A stretch of DNA of 63,360 nt, filler included, from Licmophora abbreviata (Eukaryota): NCBI GenBank assembly GCA_900291995.1. It is 4 parts of 4 records of this genome, joined end to end, with 100 filler letters (N's around TTAATTAATTAA, not from the genome) between each part and the next. Parts side by side here need not be neighbours in the genome. Positions count along the whole stretch, not along the records: positions 15,681 to 35,358 come from OLMU01002429.1; 3 more parts are not named here. One strand, 5' to 3'. Position 1 is the stretch's first letter. Every line of letters starts with the position of its first letter. This document shows positions 14,589-51,969 of this stretch, piece after piece. The translations under genes and the position numbers were made by a program. The notes below the pieces were generated by a model, which saw only the letters and a program-made list of their open reading frames with translations, was not told the DNA's origin and did no database searches.

Positions 14589-15580
14589 TTAGTCCATGGA
14601 TGCAATCTCTTTAGCAAGGTTCTCGGGCGTCATACCAAGCTCGGTCATGACGATGTCTCCCGGTGCGGAGAAGCCGAAACGGTCAACACCAACAACCTTG
14701 CTGGCGTACTTGTACCAAAGACCACTCACACCAGCCTCGATGGCAATGCGCTTCGTGCACGACGAAGGAAGCACGCTCTCCTTGTAATCATCACTCTGGC
14801 GCTCGTACGCTTCCATGCATGGCATCGACACGACACGGGCTCCCGGAAGGTCGGCGGCAGCCTTGAGGGCATGCGGGACCTCCGATCCAGTAGCGAGAAT
14901 GATCATCTCCAAATCACCACTCTCCTTCTTGGCAACGTATCCTCCCTTGAGGGCACCCTCACGCCGTTCCATGGCAGGCATGGCATCATTTTGGTCAATA
15001 TTCTGACGGGAAAAGATCAGAGCGGTCGGGCCCTCCTTACGAGTGACGGAACTGACAAAGGCAGCAACAGTCTCCTCAGCATCACCGGGACGGTAGACAT
15101 CAAGGTTAGGGATAACACGGAGGCCACTGACAGTCTCGACAGGCTGATGAGTGGGACCATCCTCTCCGACTCCGATAGAGTCGTGGGTGAGAATGTAGGA
15201 CACAGCGTTAAGCTCCGAAAGGGAAGCAACGCGCACAGTGGCGCGAAAGTAATCAACAAAGACAAGGAATGTGGATCCCGAGATCTTGAAGAGTCCATGG
15301 TAACCGAATCCGTTCATGATGGATCCCATGGCGTGCTCGCGAATACCAAAGTAAAGGTTCTTTCCCCCGTAGCTCTTGTCGAAACCAGCTCCAAAGTTTC
15401 CGCCACCCTCAATGTAGTTGCGCGTGGATCCGTGAAGATCGGCAGATCCCGAAACGTAGTGGGGAACAAGCTTAGAGATCTCCTGGATGACCTTGTAGCC
15501 CGAAACACGAGTGGCCTCAGCGGGAGCTTCAAGTTCCGGAATCTCCTTGATCATATCTGCCGCGGACATGACATTATCAT
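14589..15580 (-). CDS. TKT: Transketolase, C-terminal half (5' part lost in assembly gap)
   Basis: [54 protein letters not shown] and FGFSAP; strong codon bias. Confidence 0.95.
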
Positions 15581-15680: not shown

Positions 15681-16850
15681 CATATGATACAGGAGAATCA
15701 GGAAAGGCGAGTGTTAACGATTGGTGAGGATGGCATCAAGCGCAAGGTCTTGCTGGTCCGACCGAATGTCTTGATTGATCCGGTATGGGAAACGATCTGT
15801 GCGGACGCTCGAGAGTCGGCTCCTCCACCTCCGCGGTGGACTTTTGGGATCATACCGAGCTCCCAGGCGAGAGAGGCTGACAACGCCAAGAGAGAGCGAT
15901 ACTTGCGAGATTCGGACATTGTTCAAACGGATGAGACAGAAATCCCGACGACTGACAAGGTTCTGCTGCTTGTTAGTCGTAGTCTGAACGACAAACAAAG
16001 TCTTCCTGGACATGTGTACAAGTATCTCATCCAAAAGTATCGGGAACGATGTATTGAACGAGAGGGTCTAGCGGCGTCGGTTCACAATGAAAATAGAGAC
16101 GATAGAATCGCCGAGAGTGCTGAAGAAAGAGACGATGGCGCTACATCGGCAGATATTTGCGACGAGGGGATTGGCAGTGACGACGTGGCACGAGCTCGTC
16201 GTCAGGACACTCACGCAGTAATCAAGCATGTGACAGCAACGCTACTGGATGTTCGACCAGGTTTCGCATCATCGCCTGTCATTACCGAAATGTCGGCGAC
16301 ATCAGTTGAAGGGCTTGTGTTCGGCGAGCTTTACGGTTCAGTGTTCCAAGAGATTGTTTCGGAGACAGAAGCGTCCGACGAAGCGTTGCTCGACAGTATT
16401 GCCTCGTTTGAAAAGTCACATTCAACTGAGATAGAGAAAAGCGTGGCGCGCTCAAATTCCATGGCGGACAGTATTTCGCAGCCAGCACTCGATGCTCTGA
16501 GAATGCTCCCAGACGCTCATGCCGCCGTCGATAAGCTCCGCCTATGTGTGCGCTTCCTGGAGGAAATATCCGTGTTCTTCGCTTCGCAGGGAGGTAGCGC
16601 TCATTTGTGTGCTGATTCGCTTCTAAAGATTGTCTGTCAGCACATTATTGCCGCCAAGGTGCCACATATCAATGCAGAAATCGTATTCCTAGAAGAGTTC
16701 GCAAGAGACGAGCAACTTCTTCGCGGGAAAGAAGGCTATGCCCTGGTTACTCTGCAGGCGTCGCTACACTTTCTCAATGCAAGTACTGACTTTGACGCTG
16801 ATATCTTTGAACAAGATGATGAAGACGAAGAAGGAGCACTGGTAGTCTAG
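15681..16850 (+). CDS. VPS9-domain protein (Rab5 GEF family), 5'-truncated by gap
   Basis: DKLRLC..., LCADSLLKIV, HINAEIVFLEEF and GKEGYALVTLQASLHFL form the VPS9 signature. Confidence 0.85.
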   Translation, partial: HMIQENQERRVLTIGEDGIKRKVLLVRPNVLIDPVWETICADARESAPPPPRWTFGIIPSSQAREADNAKRERYLRDSDIVQTDETEIPTTDKVLLLVSRSLNDKQSLPGHVYKYLIQKYRERCIEREGLAASVHNENRDDRIAESAEERDDGATSADICDEGIGSDDVARARRQDTHAVIKHVTATLLDVRPGFASSPVITEMSATSVEGLVFGELYGSVFQEIVSETEASDEALLDSIASFEKSHSTEIEKSVARSNSMADSISQPALDALRMLPDAHAAVDKLRLCVRFLEEISVFFASQGGSAHLCADSLLKIVCQHIIAAKVPHINAEIVFLEEFARDEQLLRGKEGYALVTLQASLHFLNASTDFDADIFEQDDEDEEGALVV

Positions 16851-17853: not shown

Positions 17854-19123
17854 TCATTCGCCTGCAAAATCCATCACGTACCGGATTGCTTCAAGGTTCT
17901 TAAGCTCGTCGGGAATGTAGTACTTTTCAAACACGAGGGGAAAGGGAGTATCGTATCCGCACACTCGCTGAATGGGCGCCTCCAGCGACAAGAAGCATCG
18001 CTCCTGCATCTTGGCAACAATCTCGGCTCCAAATCCACACGTCACCGGTGCCTCATGACTCACCACCAACTTTCCCGTCTTCCTTACACTGCGTTCGACA
18101 GTCTCCACGTCCCAGGGCAAGATGGTTTGGAGATCAACTAGTTCACAGCGAATGCCGTATTGCTGGAAAGCCAGATCGCAAGCCTGCCGCAACACGCGCA
18201 GTTGTCCTCCCCATCCCACCACTGTCACGTCGCTACCCTCCCTCAACACTTCTGCCTGCCCTAAAGGAATTTCATATTCACCTTCCGGGACTTCTTCCAC
18301 CGCTGCTCGGTACAACGCCTGCAAAGAATGACGTTGTGAGAACGAAGAGTTGATTCCACAAGAGAGAAGAACGTCCCTGTCAGTCAATCCTTGCAGAAAC
18401 TAACCTTGGGCTCTAGAAATATGACTGGATCCTGACTTCGAATGGAGCTGAGTAGCAATCCCTTGGCACTCTTAGGACCACGCGGCATGACGACAACCAA
18501 TCCAGGTGTATGTGCTAAATAGGCCTCTGGACTCTGACTGTGGTAGTGACCTCCATGTCCGACAGCTCCACAGGGAGCGCGTAGCGTCACTCCTCCACAG
18601 TTCCACTGGTTACCACTGCGATACCGAAACTTGGCCATCTCATTGACAATCTGGTCGAATGCCGGAAAAATGTAGTCGGCGAACTGGCATTCAGCACTGT
18701 GTTGATGACGATCATAAGTTAAAACTCATCTTTCATCATTTTTCGTAATCCAGAGTTTCAATAAACTTACATTGCAGTCCCTCCCATACTTGCATATCCG
18801 ATAGCAAAGCCAGCAATTCCATTTTCGCTGAGCGGCGTGTTGAATACGCGTTCTTTCCCAAATTCTTCGCGTAGATTCTGAGAGCACCGAAAGACGCCAC
18901 CGAAGGCAACGTCCTCTCCAAAGACGACAGCCGAGTCGTCAGTCTTCATGGCAATGGACATGGCATTGTTGATGGCGGTAAAGAGATTCATGGATGTGTT
19001 CGTCTGAGTGACAGAATCAGTACTAGTTGTGACTGCGGATGAGAACAGGCGCCGGGCTCGAGCTACTTTCGAATTTGTCAAACGAGAAGAACAGCTCCGT
19101 GAAAGGATCATCACGGACCGCAT
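17854..19123 (-). CDS. BCKDHB: Branched-chain 2-oxo acid dehydrogenase E1 beta subunit, mitochondrial; introns 18697-18770 and 18319-18404
   Basis: Mitochondrial presequence; [62 protein letters not shown]. Both introns are GT-AG and in frame. Confidence 0.95.
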
Positions 19124-19728: not shown

Positions 19729-19983
19729 TTACTCCTCGTGTCCTTTACTTCTATTGGCCGCCCATCGGGCTGCAATGCTCCCCTTCTTGACACTATGACC
19801 CGCTCGCTTCTGCTTGTACTCTCTGTCACGCTCCGCTCGTTTCGCCTGAAGCTGCTTGCGGCTCTGGGCAGCATTCTCCGCCGCCTTGCGTTCGTCTTCT
19901 CCATTGTCACCCCCGCCCAGTCCTAAGCCTGCCAACTTTTGCTTGCCCAGGAGGCCAGCTGCCATTCCAGTAAACTTGTCCAT
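19729..19983 (-). CDS. Small basic helical protein, complexin-like (84 aa)
   Basis: Single-exon ORF with good start context (ACAATGG) and coding-like codon usage, occupying its own slot between BCKDHB and a methyltransferase. Sequence resembles complexin-3/4 (see findings). Confidence 0.65.
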   Translation of the reverse strand: MDKFTGMAAGLLGKQKLAGLGLGGGDNGEDERKAAENAAQSRKQLQAKRAERDREYKQKRAGHSVKKGSIAARWAANRSKGHEE

Positions 19984-20232
19984 TGTCGTTTTGCTGGTGA
20001 GACTTTCGAGAGGGCAAAGTGCCTAAAGTGTGAGCGTCGATCGCCGATGGAAGAGCCCTTTCATTCGAAGTATTGGAATGACCCAATAGTATCAATGGTC
20101 ACACAAATGACTGACACTTCTTAGTCACGGATGACGCAGTATAGGCGGGACGGCCGATGAAAGTTAACATGATTCATTCAATTCGATTGTGATTCATTCC
20201 CGGAGGCGTCGCGACATTCCCGCCGCTGCGCG

Positions 20233-21450
20233 ATGGCCGATGGCCGTCGCCCAACCACAACCATCACTTTGGAAGAACGTTATTCGCAAGCGTCCCATCG
20301 GCCACCCGCTCTAGCTCGAATGAAAGTTTCAGCGGCACACAGAGTCATTCTCTTTTTGTTATCCAGAACAGAACCCTCTAGATGGTCCAGGCGAACTTTC
20401 AAACGAAGGGCTCGCATTGACCGGATCCTGAAGCAGATCTCTTTGCCTCCTCTGCTGTTTCTTGAGAACGAACACGGTTCTATCTCTCTTGACGAGCATG
20501 GCACAGTCACTGTCCCCCTTTTAGATGCGCCACATGCTAATTGGGCATCGATCGACCCAATTTTTGACCCGCAACAAGGTGGAAAGCTTCGCGCCGACAC
20601 TCCTCGTGCGATGCGAAAGCGACGTCAGGTAGAAGCGTTTGCTTACGTCGTGTCGCAGCTGATGGAAGTTTCGAAGAACTCCCATTCTACGATCGTTGAT
20701 GCCGGTAGTGGAGCCGGAAATCTTTGCATCCCGCTTGTGGGACTGCTGTCGGATGATGATGCAATCGATGAAATATGTGCTGTGGATGTGAATCGAGTCG
20801 CGTTGGAGCGACTGGTGGCGAGAGCGCAGGAAGCGTCTGAACGATCGAGACGACAGACTCCTGGCCCAAGGATTACGACTCTATGTGCAGATCTTGCAAA
20901 AACTACATTACCAGAGGATACGGATATAGTACTCTCATTGCACGCTTGTGGGGCGGCTACCGATATGGCGATTCGACTTGCAACGACTCGCCAAGTGCCA
21001 TTTGTTGTGAGCCCGTGTTGTACCGCCAAGTCGGTCACCACCCGAACCTTGAATCGGTACGGGCCTTCAATTTCCACGGAACGGAGTGCAGCTCCTTCTG
21101 ATATGAGGTATCCTCGCTCACAGTGGTTGAGATCAAACTTGCGACCACTCCAAGTCGACAAGGAACTGACTAGTAGCAGTTCGTCTCCGGAAGAGCACTA
21201 TGAGCTATTGGCCAAAACAGCCGATGTTGGACTCGGGCCACAGACATCGCTCGAGCAGCGGTACCATCAACGAAAGGCCAAGCTTGTTATCGAGCTTGAC
21301 CGCCTGATGCATGCCAACGAGGCGCACGGCTATCAGGTACACCTGGTGCGACTGCGGGACCACGATGACTATGGCAAATCGGAGCTACTCCTTGGAGCTC
21401 CCAAGGACTCTATTGCTGCCAATGTGATATCAGCACTTACCATGCTATAG
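20233..21450 (+). CDS. SAM-dependent methyltransferase (Methyltransf_32, GSTCD C-terminal-like); start may be 20320
   Basis: RKRRQVEAF, IVDAGSGAGNL, LSLHACGAATD, VSPCC, YPRS and IELDRL. Confidence 0.85.
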   Translation: MADGRRPTTTITLEERYSQASHRPPALARMKVSAAHRVILFLLSRTEPSRWSRRTFKRRARIDRILKQISLPPLLFLENEHGSISLDEHGTVTVPLLDAPHANWASIDPIFDPQQGGKLRADTPRAMRKRRQVEAFAYVVSQLMEVSKNSHSTIVDAGSGAGNLCIPLVGLLSDDDAIDEICAVDVNRVALERLVARAQEASERSRRQTPGPRITTLCADLAKTTLPEDTDIVLSLHACGAATDMAIRLATTRQVPFVVSPCCTAKSVTTRTLNRYGPSISTERSAAPSDMRYPRSQWLRSNLRPLQVDKELTSSSSSPEEHYELLAKTADVGLGPQTSLEQRYHQRKAKLVIELDRLMHANEAHGYQVHLVRLRDHDDYGKSELLLGAPKDSIAANVISALTML

Positions 21451-32153: not shown

Positions 32154-33317
32154 TTACATTCCTTGCGCCTGCGCCAATGCTGCTTGCATCATGGCAGGAT
32201 CGATTCCCGGTCCTCCTCCTCCTCCTCCACCCATCATGCCCATCATATTTTCCATCATGCTCATCATACTGGGAGGCGGTTGAATGTTGAAGTATACCTT
32301 GCCAATCTTGGTCGTGTAGGACTGAACGACTTGCGGCTTGTACAGCAAATCGAGCTCCTTCTTGAAGGATCGGAGCAACCACGAGAACAGGGGACCCGTG
32401 CGAGCATCCTTTTCGCAGACACGCAGCAGCATGCTTCCAAAGACGACATGAGGAGGAGACTTTCCATCGTCCTTCTTCATGTACGACGCGGTGAGTTCTT
32501 CAGTGGGACGGCTTTCCACTTGTTCGATAAATGCGCTCAACAGGGTATTGGCATCCCGCAGGTTTTCGACAGCGCAAAAGACCAGCAGCGAGCGAGTCAA
32601 GAGTGCATCACGATCGGCAGGGGGGCATGTGTGTCCCATGGTCGTTTCCTCGTCGGTGGGCGCCGGGAGGGACTTGAGCCATGCCAAGATGGCCAGTGGT
32701 TTTTCCGCCAGAGCCATGTGGATGACCGCATCGCACTGCAAACTAACGACATCTTCTTCACCCTCTTCATCAATGTGTTCTTCCAAGAGAGACAATTTCC
32801 AGGACTGCGCCCCAAGAAGCTCTTGAAGTTCAAATTGTCCAAAGCGGATGGGTCCCAGATCACTGCTCCAATGAATGGTCTTGCGAAGAAAATCACGCTG
32901 CAGTCGCTGCAGACGGGTGACTTCGGTGATGCTGACATCCTTACTCACTACCTCCATGGATTTCTCGTGTGCTGCATGCAGCTCCAAGATGCGCTGAATC
33001 CAAGCGTCGGTCGGATCTGTCTGCGTCTCGCGGAGTGTCTCGACCAGTACCGTCAAGAGCTGGGACGCCACCGACACGCGGTTGTGTTGGAGAAGGGTGT
33101 TCGTGCTCGTGTAGGCCAGTTCAGCTGCATTCGTAAAATCGCCGGCATGCACCTTTTTCTTGACGAGACTCTGGGCCAGCTGCAGGGCTTCGTACGCGGT
33201 CGCCTCGTCCAGCGTTTCCTCCTTCAGCAGTGCGTCGAGCTTGGCCGTGACGGCGTCGCCCTTTTCTTTTTGACGAGCCGCCAGTTGCTTCTTACGACGA
33301 GCGGCAGCAGCAGACAT
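32154..33317 (-). CDS. GET4: Golgi-to-ER traffic protein 4 (GET4/TRC35) homologue
   Basis: YEALQLAQSL, DALLTRSLL...ENLRDAN, IGKVYFNI and C-terminal MMSMM.MM tail typical of GET4. Confidence 0.8.
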   Translation of the reverse strand: MSAAAARRKKQLAARQKEKGDAVTAKLDALLKEETLDEATAYEALQLAQSLVKKKVHAGDFTNAAELAYTSTNTLLQHNRVSVASQLLTVLVETLRETQTDPTDAWIQRILELHAAHEKSMEVVSKDVSITEVTRLQRLQRDFLRKTIHWSSDLGPIRFGQFELQELLGAQSWKLSLLEEHIDEEGEEDVVSLQCDAVIHMALAEKPLAILAWLKSLPAPTDEETTMGHTCPPADRDALLTRSLLVFCAVENLRDANTLLSAFIEQVESRPTEELTASYMKKDDGKSPPHVVFGSMLLRVCEKDARTGPLFSWLLRSFKKELDLLYKPQVVQSYTTKIGKVYFNIQPPPSMMSMMENMMGMMGGGGGGGPGIDPAMMQAALAQAQGM

Positions 33318-38375: not shown

Positions 38376-40245
38376 TTAAGCCTCAAACTTGAGTAGGACG
38401 AAGTCGTGGTATTCCTCGTCGTCCTCAATGTCATCGTCCTCCTTCTTCTCTCCAAGTGCTTTGTCCAGGGCTGTCGTCAGGTCCTGGTCTTTTCCCCGGT
38501 TCACCTTGTATAGGACAGCTGTGAAGTCAACCGGAAGTCCATAGCGAAGGACGCTCTCAACAAAAGCGCGAATCACCTTGATGTGCATCCAAGCGACGAA
38601 GGCTTCCCCATAGTGAGATTTGCACCAACGCGTCAGTGCACTGCGCATACCATCAACCTCGACCTGTAGCTGTTCAAACGCCATGACCGATTTGGAAGCC
38701 TGAGACGGATCATACTGAAAGTCACGGACAACGAAACGCTTTTCGCGCAAGACCTTGCTAAACTCTTCGACAAAGTCCACCTTGGTTCCGGGTTGGAAGT
38801 CGTCGCCTTCGTAGTAGCCTGCTTCGTATTGTCCTTTCAGGATTGTCACCGTGTACAAGACGCTGTCACCATCCCTGTGAACTTCCGTCACTGATCCAGG
38901 GACGACAGGCGATCCTCGCTCCTTATGGCGATCGACAAGGGATCCGAACTGAACGGGCTCACCGAGCTTGCTTGGGTCGCGGCTCCAGTCAGGTCCTTGT
39001 TCAAGGAAATACAAATATTATCAGAAAAGGATGAGTCGAGTCAGACCACAATTGCACGAGACCAAGATTTCAGCAAAGACAGTGCATAGAGTCCCTCACC
39101 TCCATATCCAACTAGATCGTTACCAATTTTCTCGACTCCGCTCTCGAAGTTTTCCTTCATGTTTATCGGAACAGCGACAAAGATTGTCTTGAGGTAATCG
39201 GTATCGTGCACTTGTACGGTGCGCATAATCTCCTCCGTCAGTACATCATTCAAGTCCGCCGCCATGAGATTCCCACCCTTTTTGCGTTTGGATTCCTGAA
39301 GGGCAGCCGTTTTATCCGCAAATGAGGTACCCAACTGCTTCAACTCCTCATCGACCGCCGAAACTCCACCGCTAATGAGCGCCACGAGTTCCTTCAAAGG
39401 TCTCCTGTTGGGGTACTTGGCATAGTCCCATGCAAACTGTTGAATGTACCGAGGAGCAGGGACTGGAAAGGAACGTTACAAAAGAAGAGCGTATGTGTCT
39501 TATAGTGAGTCAAGTCGTCATGGATCAATGCTGCATCCTCTTGTCGTTGGTGATCCGCTGCGTTTGTGGGTTCCACTCACCGCCGCCGACCGTGAAGTCC
39601 GACTTGCCGCCTCCAGTAAGTTCGAGGCCCGTCGACTCGATCTTTCGAACAATGCTTTCCACGACGTGGTCCGTCTTTCCCAGGTCATCGCTCAGGGACT
39701 GCAGTAAAAATTAGGAGGAGAAAGAGGCCGCGTTGGATGAATGAATCGTTCAAAAGACGGTACAGTACTTCGATTTTCGACTGACGGGCAGACACTGAAC
39801 TCACCATAAGACTGTCAAGCGTCCCCACCGTCAACGAAGGCACTTCAAACTTGAACATTTCTGTGACACATGATAAGGGTCAAGTAAACGTGAGTCTAGA
39901 CTGCAGATAAAAGCCAACCCGGCGCACATTTCGCCTTTTCGCGCCATGGTAGTCGGCACAGATCTTTTTTTTCTGTCCAGAGTGGACGAGATCCAATTTC
40001 ATCAACAGCCACTCTGCCGCCAACATAGCTAAACGTCTCGATACCTTAAGAAGAAGTACGAACCCCAATTCCAGTACAAAATTGTCGTAGAAGCAACGGG
40101 TCGATTATTTGGGCGATCGGGACGGAATGAAAATGGACGTACCGGCAAACGGCGCAGAAGGACAAGCTCCAGCGCTCTGCATTTTCCGATAGGCCTGTTC
40201 CGGGGCACCCCCTCCATTGGAGATGGAAGCGATGAAGTAGCTCAT
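38376..40245 (-). CDS. VMA5: V-type H+-ATPase subunit C; 5 exons (introns 39861-40142, 39699-39804, 39463-39580, 38996-39099)
   Basis: Spliced translation gives MSYFIASI..., FEVPSLTVGTLDSLMSLSDDLGK, FAWDYAKYP, GGNLM, WMHIKVIRAFVESVLRYGLPVDF. Confidence 0.93.
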
Positions 40246-47846: not shown

Positions 47847-50800
47847 TTAAAACTCCTCATGAGCATTGTTTCCAACGACTGCCGACGCCGCGGCCTCGCA
47901 GGCGGCTCCCACACACGATGCCGTCGCTTCGACCAGCGATTCCGCCACCGTCGCGTTGGCTTCCGTTTCGTTCGCCTCCAGAGCCGCCAATCGAGCCTCT
48001 TCCGCCAAGAGCTCTTCCCACTGCTCGTCGTTGCCGAGGAATGTGTACATCAAAAAGGCAATCAGGCAAACGTTCGAGCGAGACCAAAGATGTCGCGGAA
48101 CGTCGTGCCTTCGAGACTCGCCTTGAGGATCTGGGGACAAAAGAAGAACTTCATTAGTCGGTCCAGCAAGAAGGAAGCGATGACATCCACCGCTAGGATC
48201 TTGAGGATAAAGTCGCGAAAGACTTCGTCTGGGAATGGTACGAGCTGAAAGTACTTGTTCAGGCCTGGCACCGTCTCGCTGGCAAACATAAACGTGAGGA
48301 TGAACGTCGCCAGTAGACTCCACAAGAGCGGTCGGTTTTCGGTCAGGCCTGTCATGAACGGGCGGCCTTGTAAGTTGACGACAAAGACTGTCACTTGTTG
48401 CACGTTGCTGACCAAAAACACGACCGTGTTAAGCAGTCCCGGCTTAAATACGCCATCAAGATCTACCTCATGATCGATAGGCAAATGCTTCTTGGAGCTC
48501 CAGACTGCAATCATCATGGTTGTCAGATGAATAGCAAATTGGCCGAGTAAACTGATGAAGAGCGCGGGATGAAAAATCGACGTCAATGGACGGACGGGGG
48601 ATAGCCTGTCAAGGGGTTTTGAACGAGATACAGACATGAAAGAAATCGAGCCCAACATTCCCATGGCTGTCATTTGAGTGTCCCCGTACTTGATACCATC
48701 GAGGTAGAGAACCGAAAGCGAGTACGAGCTGATCAGACAGTTGAGAGCCAGAATTTGGTACTGTCGATCAATAAAGCAAGGCGGGTGGGGTTAGATGTTT
48801 TGAGTCGTCACTCCAATCGGCACCAAAGCGCGAATCGGTCATACGGGACATACCATTTGGATACTCGAAACCAGTGTGCACCGCCCTTGTCGTACAATGT
48901 CAACACAGCTTCGAATGCTTGGCATCTTGCTCGTAAACGGCGCCGCGATACTTGCGTCTCCGAGTTTTACCATGGGCAGTTCACCAGAGTCCATGTCTTC
49001 AAGCTGGGCAACCATTGATGCTGCTGATCCTTCAATACTTCGGTTCTTCGTCATAGTTGCCTTGTTCTTCCTAGCCTCTTCCACTTCAGCTGCGTAGAAC
49101 TCTTTCATCGCCTGGAAAGTTCCAACTTCTTCCGCTCGGAGGTTCATCTTGCGCTGCTTTTCCGCGAGATCCGCACGTTTCTTTGCCTGCAGTTCAGAGC
49201 GCGACATCTTCGTCTTGTCCAGTGCATTCTTCTTGTCGTGTTTCTTCATAGCAACCTCCCGCGCTTTGATCTGGTAAAGTTGAACCAAGTCCTCTTTCTC
49301 AATAAGCTGCGGGTACTTGTCGGGGTCTACTCCCAGCTGACGAATCTTCCCCTTCAGAAGTATAACAGGCAAGTTGCGTATCGCCTGGAGGTGTTCTTTC
49401 GTAATGATGGCAGTAGGTTTGTTCGGGTCACTGTCATCGTCGTTTGTCTTCTTGATGCTATCTTCTCCACGGTCCACGTTGACGTCGCCAAAGCCCGAGA
49501 GTAGCGCTACTCCTACGTCTGCCTGTTTGAGCGCACCGACATCATTAGCACCGTCGCCACACATGAGACATAGCGATCCGACACCATGAAGACACTCAAT
49601 CACGGTTTCCTTTGCATCTGGTGTCATTCGGGCGAAGATCTTGAAGTACCCCAAAACATTCTTCGTTTCCTCGTCGTACTCAAACGCCGACGCAAGCCTC
49701 TTCCCGGTCGTCGCCAGGTCGTTCTCCTGTGAAAGCGCTGGTACCTCACTCGCTACAAAGTCGTCGATTTTAGACTCGTCATCGTAGCTCTGCCAGTACA
49801 TGTCTCCAGTGTCGTCCTCTTCGAGAATAAGGATCGGTTTGAACTCCCTTCCCGACTTGCTCTTTGACTTGTTCTTCGTGATGTTCGCTTGGCCCCGCTT
49901 GCGCTCCAAGAGCTCACGAAGTTCTTCGTTCGTCTCTTCGATCACGTCTTCGTCGTCCATCGAGCCTGAGACCAAGTCACAAATACCAACTTCTTTAGCC
50001 ACATGCGCCGCCGTGAGAAGCGCATCGCCAGTAACCATGGCAATGCTCATGCCGCCTTCCTTAAGCCTGCGAAGAACAGCAGCCGTATCCCTGCGAACAC
50101 GACATGTGAAGGCGATAAACCCAGCAAATGTAAGATCCGCCTCGCAGCTAGCCCGTGTCCCTTGGGCGCTCTCAACGTCGGTAGAGCTATCCAACTGCTT
50201 GTATGCCAAGGCAATCACGCGGTAACCTTCCTTGGACAGATGTTTCGACTTCTCATCATACCCATCTGGTTTCGAGGATAGGTGTCTTCCGATCGCCTCT
50301 GGGGACCCCTTTGCCACGGCAAAATGTCGGCCAGTCGACGAACGCACAACGCAGCTCATTCGTTGCAGTTTGGAACTAAAATGGTGACGCGTCAGAACCT
50401 CGATCTCTGAAATGGACGCGCCTGAACTGAGCGTTACTAGCTTGCCCGCTGGCTTTTTTTCAGTTGAAGGCGCAGGGATGGCGTGCCCGGTAGTCTCTGA
50501 GAGACCCCATCGCATGGCTCTTATGGCGGCGCTTTCCAGAGGATCGCCAGTCGTTTCACCTTCGATAAAGACTAGAGAATGACAGCCTGCCAACACGAGC
50601 GCGGCCTCTCCCGTCACTTTTGTCATAGCTGTGAGCAGTGTCTCGTCGTCCGCGTCCTCTTTCGCCTTGAGCTTCGGTGGTTCGCACACGCCTACAGCCA
50701 CAAGCTCGTCCGTCGTGAGCGTGCCCGTCTTGTCAAATAAGCACGAGTCCAACTTGCCTGCAATCGGGACTCGGAACGGTTCGGTACAAAAGACCTGCAT

Positions 50801-51969
50801 CTTCATGAGGGTCATGAGACTGTTATTGACGGCGAGCGCCATCTGCATCGGTAGCTCGGGCGGAATGACGCTGGTAATGATCAAGATACAATGCAACAGC
50901 AGCTCGTACTGACTGCGATTGTCGTCGTGCATGCCGTGGTAAAGAACGTAGGAGGAACTCGCAATAGCAAAGAAGAACAACAGCAACAACAGCAAGCCTG
51001 TCTCTTTCTCGTGACCCTTGACCTTTTCTTGTGACCCTTCAATCATGCGCACGAGCTTGCCCTGTGCGGATGAGAAACCCGTTCGAAGGACAAAGCACAA
51101 GCATCCTCCGTCCGGCGGAGGAGGGACATGACTGTACTGCTTCGTCGTCATTGCAATTTCATCCGATCCTTCTACGATGCCTCTACACTGCAGCATTTTC
51201 GTTCCAGCATACAGAATGTGCATTTTGTGGCGATGCTTCATACTCAAGGATTCCTCGCCATTCAGTTCGACCAGCCCCTCCTTCATCTGAGGAACTGACT
51301 CTCCCGTCAGACTGGCTTCATTGACCACAGTCGATCCCCGCAGCAGCAATCAAATCTGCTGGCACAATATCACCACCTTCGTCTTCAATCTTGTTATTCT
51401 CTTGGTGCGGCTTATGCCTTGTAAGAGATACAAGATCGCCAGGCAACAATTGAAAACTATCCGTTTCTTCCCACGCACCCATGCGATAGACCCATACCGA
51501 TCGCGCCTTGTTGCCCATGCCCCGCAAGGCCGACAAGCTCTTGATACGCGAAAAGACGACGGTACCTTCAAAGGTCAAAATCATGAAAAGTGTAAAGGCC
51601 GAGTACTGCCAATAGTCATCGAGCATCCACAATATGACACAAAACAACTGAAAGACGGTAAAGGGCGATAGCAACTGCGCTTTGTACATTTCACCGAATG
51701 TTGCCTGTTTCACTTGGAACGTGTTGGGGCCATATCGAATCTCTCCAGCGATAACTTGGTGGTCTGAGGAAAGTCCCTGCCAATCCGACAGCACTGAAAG
51801 CGGAAGGTCCGTCCGACAGCGAATCTTGGTCCAGATCTGTGCGTCTGTATCAAAGACATAGCGGCGTCTATGATACTCAAGCGTCATACCAAGCGTCGGA
51901 TAGTAAAGAATGGGAACAAGCACATGACGCCCTTTGCCTGGCACAATCCTGGCATGCGTCGGCAGATGC
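47847..51969 (-). CDS. ATP13A1: P5A-type ATPase (ATP13A1/Spf1), 5'-truncated by gap; intron 48761-48853; apparent frameshifts at ~51350 and ~48067-48070
   Basis: LTGESVP, P5A-specific PPELPMQM, DKTGTLT, KGSPE, MVTGD, MCGDGANDVGALK, KLGDASIAAPFTSK and GRCTL. Confidence 0.93.

Follow-up and report, generated by a model that had tools for sequence, protein, structure and literature searches.

A small gene of a non-holozoan-type nuclear genome encodes a divergent member of a conserved protein family, probably of truncated complexin homologues

The closest described counterparts of the protein analyzed here are the complexins, in which an accessory helix is followed by a central helix, a layout that is set out in the available part of PMC8377282. 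In the excerpts of PMC13454271 that were accessible, complexins range over the Metazoa and the unicellular Holozoa, and they are treated as having arisen in the unicellular relatives of animals, the example being the choanoflagellate Monosiga brevicollis, a unicellular organism that has a complexin without having synaptotagmin. The same excerpts present a 'primordial', synaptotagmin-independent role of complexin as an active question and state that the C-terminal domain is required for synaptotagmin-independent activity. They further describe R48 and R59 as evolutionarily conserved residues that are required for SNARE binding and whose hydrogen bonds with VAMP2 and syntaxin-1A, seen in the 1KIL structure, are critical; in the Cpx2 R48L/R59H double mutant, both SNARE binding and function are abolished (PMC13454271, in part).

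We analyzed a window (the whole stretch of DNA under study, 63,360 nucleotides in four joined parts, filler included) that encodes an 84-residue protein, P0001. On balance, we read P0001 as the product of a real gene belonging to a conserved family of truncated complexin homologues, whose mechanism, as suggested by sequence, would be the regulation of SNARE complexes in exocytosis. The gene context of P0001 in the window is not of holozoan type, which would place the protein outside the stated taxonomic range of complexin. Full-text literature searches, judged mostly by title, returned no description of a complexin outside Holozoa, and a full-text search for PF05835, the Pfam accession of the complexin family (Synaphin), returned no mention of it.

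The P0001 gene and its surroundings

P0001 is encoded by an ATG-to-TAA ORF of 84 codons (Table 1). The initial annotation had claimed an 84-aa ORF at this place and had given no strand; the ORF is present, on the minus strand, and both stretches that had been quoted from it, one Gly-rich and acidic, the other long and basic with RW at its end, are found letter for letter in the translation. An in-frame stop lies 14 codons 5' of the ATG, and the start of P0001 falls in the same alignment column as the starts of its relatives. When codon usage was scored against eight Pfam-confirmed neighbouring genes, the P0001 frame gave +0.268 log2 per codon, the best of the six frames, the others ranging from -0.447 to +0.159. 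The GC content is 0.567 over the ORF and 0.43-0.48 just downstream of it. The retrieval of 35 relatives sets P0001 well apart from a chance ORF; the gene is real.

Part of the P0001 stretch was also found in marine-metagenome data, on short contigs at least 99% identical to the window. These contigs belong to three DNA runs, of two studies, the only sequencing runs listed with the stretch; no RNA run was among them, a result with no bearing on expression. The sole difference from the window in those contigs is C>T at position 19831, in the third position of codon 51, where GAG becomes GAA, a synonymous change. This variant is common to all three runs from the two studies, so that either the window carries the rarer allele or it represents a distinct strain.

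The genes of the window, which is eukaryotic nuclear DNA, are compact and mostly intron-poor; among them a Pfam scan identified kinesin, PPR, VPS9, GET4, F-box, RING and EF-Ts matches, together with a STELLO glycosyltransferase, VIT1, a fragment of V-ATPase subunit C and a P-type ATPase. The V-ATPase subunit C match (38379-38684, minus strand) covers only profile positions 262-342 of 371, and the P-type ATPase (48839-51887, minus strand) is made up of two adjacent ORFs, 48839-51286 and 51321-51887; some genes in this intron-poor region therefore have introns. No SNARE gene was detected within the window by the Pfam scan. Two genes of membrane traffic are present, one for a VPS9-domain, Rab5-GEF-like protein (15684-16850, plus strand) and one for GET4 (32154-33317, minus strand); nothing ties either of them to the complexin-like gene.

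On one side, the P0001 gene is divergent from a Methyltransf_32 gene, with 249 bp between the two, and on the other it is followed, after about 600 bp, by an E1-beta (Transket_pyr) gene. Genes of this E1-beta type (Transket_pyr) occur twice in the window, less than 5 kb apart, at 18384-19123 and 14589-15569, both on the minus strand. The one beside P0001 is spread over two or more ORFs (18767-19123 and 18384-18638), which points to an intron, the second piece having been assigned to E1-beta by eye; the gene at 14589-15569 is one ORF of 326 aa that has both the Transket_pyr and the C-terminal domain.

Table 1. Coordinates, along the window, of the P0001 gene, the predicted parts of its product and its divergent neighbour
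Feature	Position	Strand	P0001 residues	Basis or remark
Complete CDS, complexin-like protein P0001 (84 aa)	19729..19983	-	1-84	ORF listing, translation; stop codon 19729-19731
Predicted N-terminal helix	19927..19980	-	2-19	AlphaFold2, alignments; K14-Q15 = K6-Q7 of complexin-1
Predicted Gly-rich flexible linker, followed by an acidic stretch	19906..19926	-	20-26	Model, alignment
First part of the predicted long helix, accessory-helix equivalent	19831..19905	-	27-51	Model, alignments
Central-helix equivalent	19762..19830	-	52-74	HMMER and family alignments; R52 and W74 invariant
Short basic tail	19732..19761	-	75-84	Conserved A-N-K/R after the Trp; N77 conserved in at least 90%
Intergenic region between the divergent P0001 and Methyltransf_32 genes (249 bp), presumed promoter region	19984..20232	.		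ORF positions
Neighbouring Methyltransf_32 gene	20233-21450	+		Pfam

A family of small proteins and its match to complexin

The 35 relatives of P0001 (70-167 aa) come from public metagenome and assembly collections, and their annotations say nothing beyond 'hypothetical protein'. An exhaustive phmmer search of P0001 against 1.84 billion representatives gave 14 matches at E<=1e-3, seven of which are small proteins (77-129 aa) that align with P0001 from end to end (E 6.3e-8 to 8e-4); as the alignment grew, profile searches brought in another 15 small proteins and later 13 more. The longer relatives carry N-terminal extensions that are not conserved and look like over-called starts. Across a 23-sequence alignment (in P0001 numbering) K14, R52, E55, K67 and W74 are invariant, and M1, Q15, R42, R49, D53, A61, an Arg at position 63, K66, N77 and K78 are conserved in at least 90% of the sequences. 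P0001 is almost certainly a divergent member of this family.

Two sub-types can be seen in the family alignment. In one, the N-terminal motif is of the type F-M-K-Q-K-M-G, the linker is a longer Pro-Gly one and the ending reads R-W-A-x-N-K; in the other, the motif is of the type W-A-K-Q-K-M, the linker is short and Gly-rich, and the ending reads K-W-K-A-N-K. With its short Gly-rich linker, P0001 resembles the latter.

The other seven phmmer matches are repeat proteins of 783-2690 aa, in which residues 4-56 of P0001 are matched several times over, and the two best E-values of the search (5.7e-18 and 1.9e-10) belong to them. We rejected these proteins as relatives, taking their scores to be sums of weak repeat matches to the Gly/Ala/Leu/Asn-rich linker. 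Three of the seven, those that were scanned (P0002, P0003 and P0008), carry a Peptidase_S74 tail-fibre chaperone domain, and the family profile gave no match to P0008 (hhalign probability 0.03%). A short, biased query such as P0001 can rank repeat proteins above true relatives in phmmer. A single-sequence word-index search with P0001 gave no match, and a protein atlas no usable match. Related loci were sought in metagenome contigs (two scans), viral contigs and prokaryote genomes and none was confirmed; these negative scans are weak, since each relied on a single short peptide pattern, with tblastn against just one sequence as the check.

The initial annotation had proposed that P0001 might be a distant complexin homologue and had named the Synaphin (PF05835) profile as a check. 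Synaphin is indeed the top Pfam match of P0001, but at 16.1 bits (E 0.014) it stays below the 27-bit gathering threshold; the match pairs P0001 residues 18-61 with profile positions 14-61 of 142 and does not reach the second half of the central helix. Among the relatives, Synaphin is the top Pfam match in 30 of 35 (21 of 22 in the first batch, nine of 13 in the second). It exceeds 27 bits in eight of the 35, several of which are close kin of one another, with scores of 27.3-33.6 bits and a best E of 5.8e-8 (P0021 27.3, P0027 29.6, P0028 28.5, P0031 33.0, P0032 33.6, P0035 31.6, P0036 32.7 and P0037 31.5 bits). In a further 22 it is the top match below the cut-off, and in the remaining five it gives no match at E<=1, which leaves 27 of 35 relatives with Synaphin below the cut-off or absent. 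All of the Synaphin matches are colinear, beginning at profile positions 2-20 at each protein's own N-terminal motif and running on to positions 65-81. Other Pfam families reach about 10-18 bits on these proteins (best E 0.00097), and many of them are charged-helix families. A PF05835 tag had been assigned in advance to nine of the 35 relatives in the protein collection; given such automatic tags, public domain databases may already list proteins of this kind without comment.

Searches of the PDB (177,635 distinct sequences) pointed the same way. For family profiles built from eight and 23 sequences, the sole PDB match at E<=10 was complexin-1 (5w5c_E), with E values of 0.063 and 0.024, respectively; the bias term reported by HMMER for the match of the 23-sequence profile is large, at 12.4 against a score of 18.6 bits. 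Complexin-1 was also the first PDB match of two individual relatives, of P0036 at E 1.5e-4 (gap-free over 73 residues, chain residues 2-74) and of P0032 at E 1.1e-3 (gap-free over 74 residues, chain residues 2-75), while the next matches of P0036 and P0032 (E 0.084 and 0.049) are plainly unrelated proteins. P0001 itself had no PDB match by phmmer at E<=10. In a language-model search, which we treat as a lead only, the best match of P0032 was a 'complexin-like' cluster (97% PF05835, mostly cnidarian), with a score of 0.76. No animal or choanoflagellate complexin was found among the 14 single-sequence matches or the 27 profile matches at E<=10. The family sequences are rich in K, R, E and A.

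P0001 alone lies below the Synaphin cut-off and its relatives link to complexin; its membership in Synaphin therefore rests on transitivity. At the level of sequence, the proposed distant homology is supported through the family, but P0001 taken by itself does not carry it.

Architecture and the SNARE-contact positions

As judged from alignments and the model, the family consists of soluble, basic, helical proteins of 70-90 residues with an N-terminal motif, a Gly/acidic linker, and an accessory and a central helix. The AlphaFold2 model of P0001, computed with the 23-sequence alignment (mean pLDDT 70.1, pTM 0.29), predicts an N-terminal helix, a flexible Gly-rich linker and a single long helix over residues 27-81. 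The Met-Lys motif at the N terminus of complexin is functionally important in animals. In the family motif the Lys is invariant and the Gln is conserved in at least 90% of the sequences, the pair being aligned to K6-Q7 of complexin-1 and to Synaphin positions 2-7; the residue before K14 is Gly13 in P0001 and mostly Met in the relatives. The linker is aligned to the GG-acidic stretch of complexin-1; it varies in length among the relatives, and in the model of P0001 its pLDDT drops under 50 at residues 23-25. The accessory-helix equivalent aligns with the Synaphin profile up to about position 47 and with complexin-1 residues 23-47, and in the model it is continuous with the central helix, with block pLDDT values of up to 86 over residues 27-81. 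We set the boundary between the two helices by alignment to R48, using what we take to be the domain limits of complexin-1.

In each of the 36 family sequences, about 6-12 residues follow the Trp of the central helix before the protein ends, and in P0001 the stop codon follows right after residue 84. The Synaphin matches, accordingly, span only profile positions of about 2-81 of 142, and the C-terminal membrane-binding/CAAX domain (about 60 residues) is absent in 36 of 36, which bears out what the initial annotation had said of P0001. The predicted layout of P0001 matches that of complexin, as given in the available part of PMC8377282, except that nothing follows the central helix. The family has a net charge of +5 to +8, and this positive charge might help at acidic membranes. 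We also considered the N-terminal helix as an amphipathic anchor that replaces the C-terminal domain, and rejected the idea, as the 18-residue hydrophobic moment (0.06-0.22) gives it no support.

In the HMMER alignments, K6-Q7 of complexin-1 corresponds to K14-Q15 of P0001, R48 to R52, Y52 to Y56, A57-E58-R59 to A61-G62-H63, I66 to I70 and K69-Y70 to R73-W74. Across the family, the complexin-1 residues R48, Y52, A57-E58-R59, I66 and K69-Y70 align with a conserved R, Y, A-E-R, I and R/K-W. We take K69 and Y70 of complexin to be important for SNARE contact. Judged by these alignments, the most conserved positions of the family coincide with the SNARE-contact positions of complexin, and their spacing is identical. 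A pattern with the complexin-1 spacing, R-x10-R-x9-[KR][YFW], occurs in 27 of the 36 family sequences and in 0.02-1.7% of shuffles (5,000 composition-preserving shuffles per sequence), although the members are kin and the count amounts to about one event, not 27; a six-residue version of the pattern occurs in 19 of the 36 and in at most 0.02% of shuffles.

P0001 matches neither pattern, because of His63. It retains R52, Y56, I70, R73 and W74, while at the position equivalent to R59 it has His63, its Gly62-His63 standing where at least 90% of the relatives have Glu-Arg. These two residues weaken the case for SNARE binding, and for a role in exocytosis, in P0001 itself, and since R59H is part of the binding-dead double mutant, P0001 may bind SNAREs weakly or not at all.

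Readings of the family and comparison with known complexins

The family is very likely a true homologue of the complexin core that runs from the N terminus to the central helix. Its conserved contact residues suggest a role in SNARE binding and exocytosis. In the mechanism that we propose, the central helix of P0001 would lie antiparallel in the groove between an R-SNARE and a syntaxin-type Qa-SNARE of an assembling exocytic complex, with R52, Y56, an Arg (His63 in P0001), I70 and R73-W74 as the putative contacts. Acting on the last stage of zippering, the N-terminal motif and the helix that precedes the central one would modulate how fast, or when, vesicles fuse with the plasma membrane. As the C-terminal domain is missing, recruitment to the membrane might occur via the SNAREs themselves or via the net positive charge of the protein.

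Three other readings were weighed against this one. It is highly improbable that the P0001 ORF is non-functional, a chance or decaying reading frame. P0001 is the most divergent member of the family, sharing 32-44% identity with the 22 relatives in its alignment, as such a reading might lead one to expect; but the ORF is intact and keeps all five of the invariant family residues, its codon frame is the best of six, its single population variant is synonymous, and phmmer matches it to full-length relatives with E down to 6.3e-8. A lack of any common ancestry, where a K/R/E/A-rich charged helix would share a few convergent residues with complexin and might be either a SNARE binder or something unrelated, we consider quite unlikely. 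The low-complexity composition with its large HMMER bias terms would fit it, as would the 27 of 35 relatives below the Pfam cut-off, the failure of searches that started from the family to bring up a holozoan complexin in very large databases, and the huge phylogenetic gap, our literature searches having found no complexin outside Holozoa. Against these points, eight members exceed the curated threshold (E to 5.8e-8), the other charged-helix families scoring no more than 18 bits, and complexin-1 is the only or the top PDB match although the PDB holds many coiled coils. Moreover, the likeness takes in the N-terminal motif, which is not charged, and it extends without gaps for 73-74 residues, the functional positions being identically spaced.

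The family could also be a true complexin homologue that no longer acts on SNARE complexes and serves some other purpose as a small basic helical protein, or this could be so for P0001 alone, a reading that we judge unlikely. The C-terminal domain that is missing from 36 of 36 sequences is, according to the available part of PMC13454271, needed for synaptotagmin-independent function, and R59H, which the Gly62-His63 of P0001 in place of Glu-Arg recalls, belongs to a binding-dead mutant described in the same excerpts; the net charge of +5 to +8 points in this direction too. Yet the most conserved residues of the family are the SNARE-contact positions, which would be hard to explain if binding had been lost, and P0001 keeps R52, Y56, I70 and R73-W74. 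We prefer the reading of a conserved family of complexin homologues that would still act on SNAREs.

On this preferred reading, the family may be regarded as a basic 'mini-complexin' that lacks the C-terminal domain, in a lineage far from animals. Whether the complexin core is pre-holozoan, existing as a free-standing exocytosis regulator of 80 residues in marine protists of photosynthetic type (diatom-like, by the initial annotation) with no synaptotagmin partner, is in our view evenly balanced. If it is, complexin would either date from near the root of the eukaryotes, having gone undetected because it is tiny and fast-evolving, or have moved between lineages, and holozoans would have added the C-terminal membrane domain later; candidate processes would include, for example, the release of silica vesicles or of mucilage. 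Should the reading be true, the origin of this SNARE regulator would move far back or a transfer between lineages would be revealed. The family would also provide a natural 'minimal complexin' without the C-terminal domain, from which one could learn which activities need that domain, as well as a first candidate regulator of timed exocytosis for diatom and algal cell biology.

Set beside known complexins, the family shows differences as well as likenesses. The complexin of M. brevicollis, the deepest-branching one named in the literature consulted, is that of a holozoan, whereas the present family comes from a marine nuclear genome that does not look holozoan, with PPR and STELLO genes. Unlike complexin-3/4, which are retinal and CAAX-farnesylated, the family has neither a CAAX box nor a C-terminal region. 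The mammalian complexin-1/2 (PF05835; 5W5C chain E, residues 1-83; 1KIL) likewise differ from it in having a C-terminal domain. Most family members have 4-9 more residues before the N-terminal motif than complexin-1/2 and have Trp in place of Tyr70, and the family is net basic where animal complexins are acidic; P0001, in addition, carries His in place of R59, and in its N-terminal motif the Met is replaced by Gly. With complexin-1/2 the family nevertheless shares the order of its elements, a hydrophobic-Met-Lys-Gln motif, a Gly-Gly/acidic linker and a long helix, and along that helix the equivalents of R48, Y52, A57-E58-R59, I66 and K69-Y70 are conserved in the family at identical spacing.
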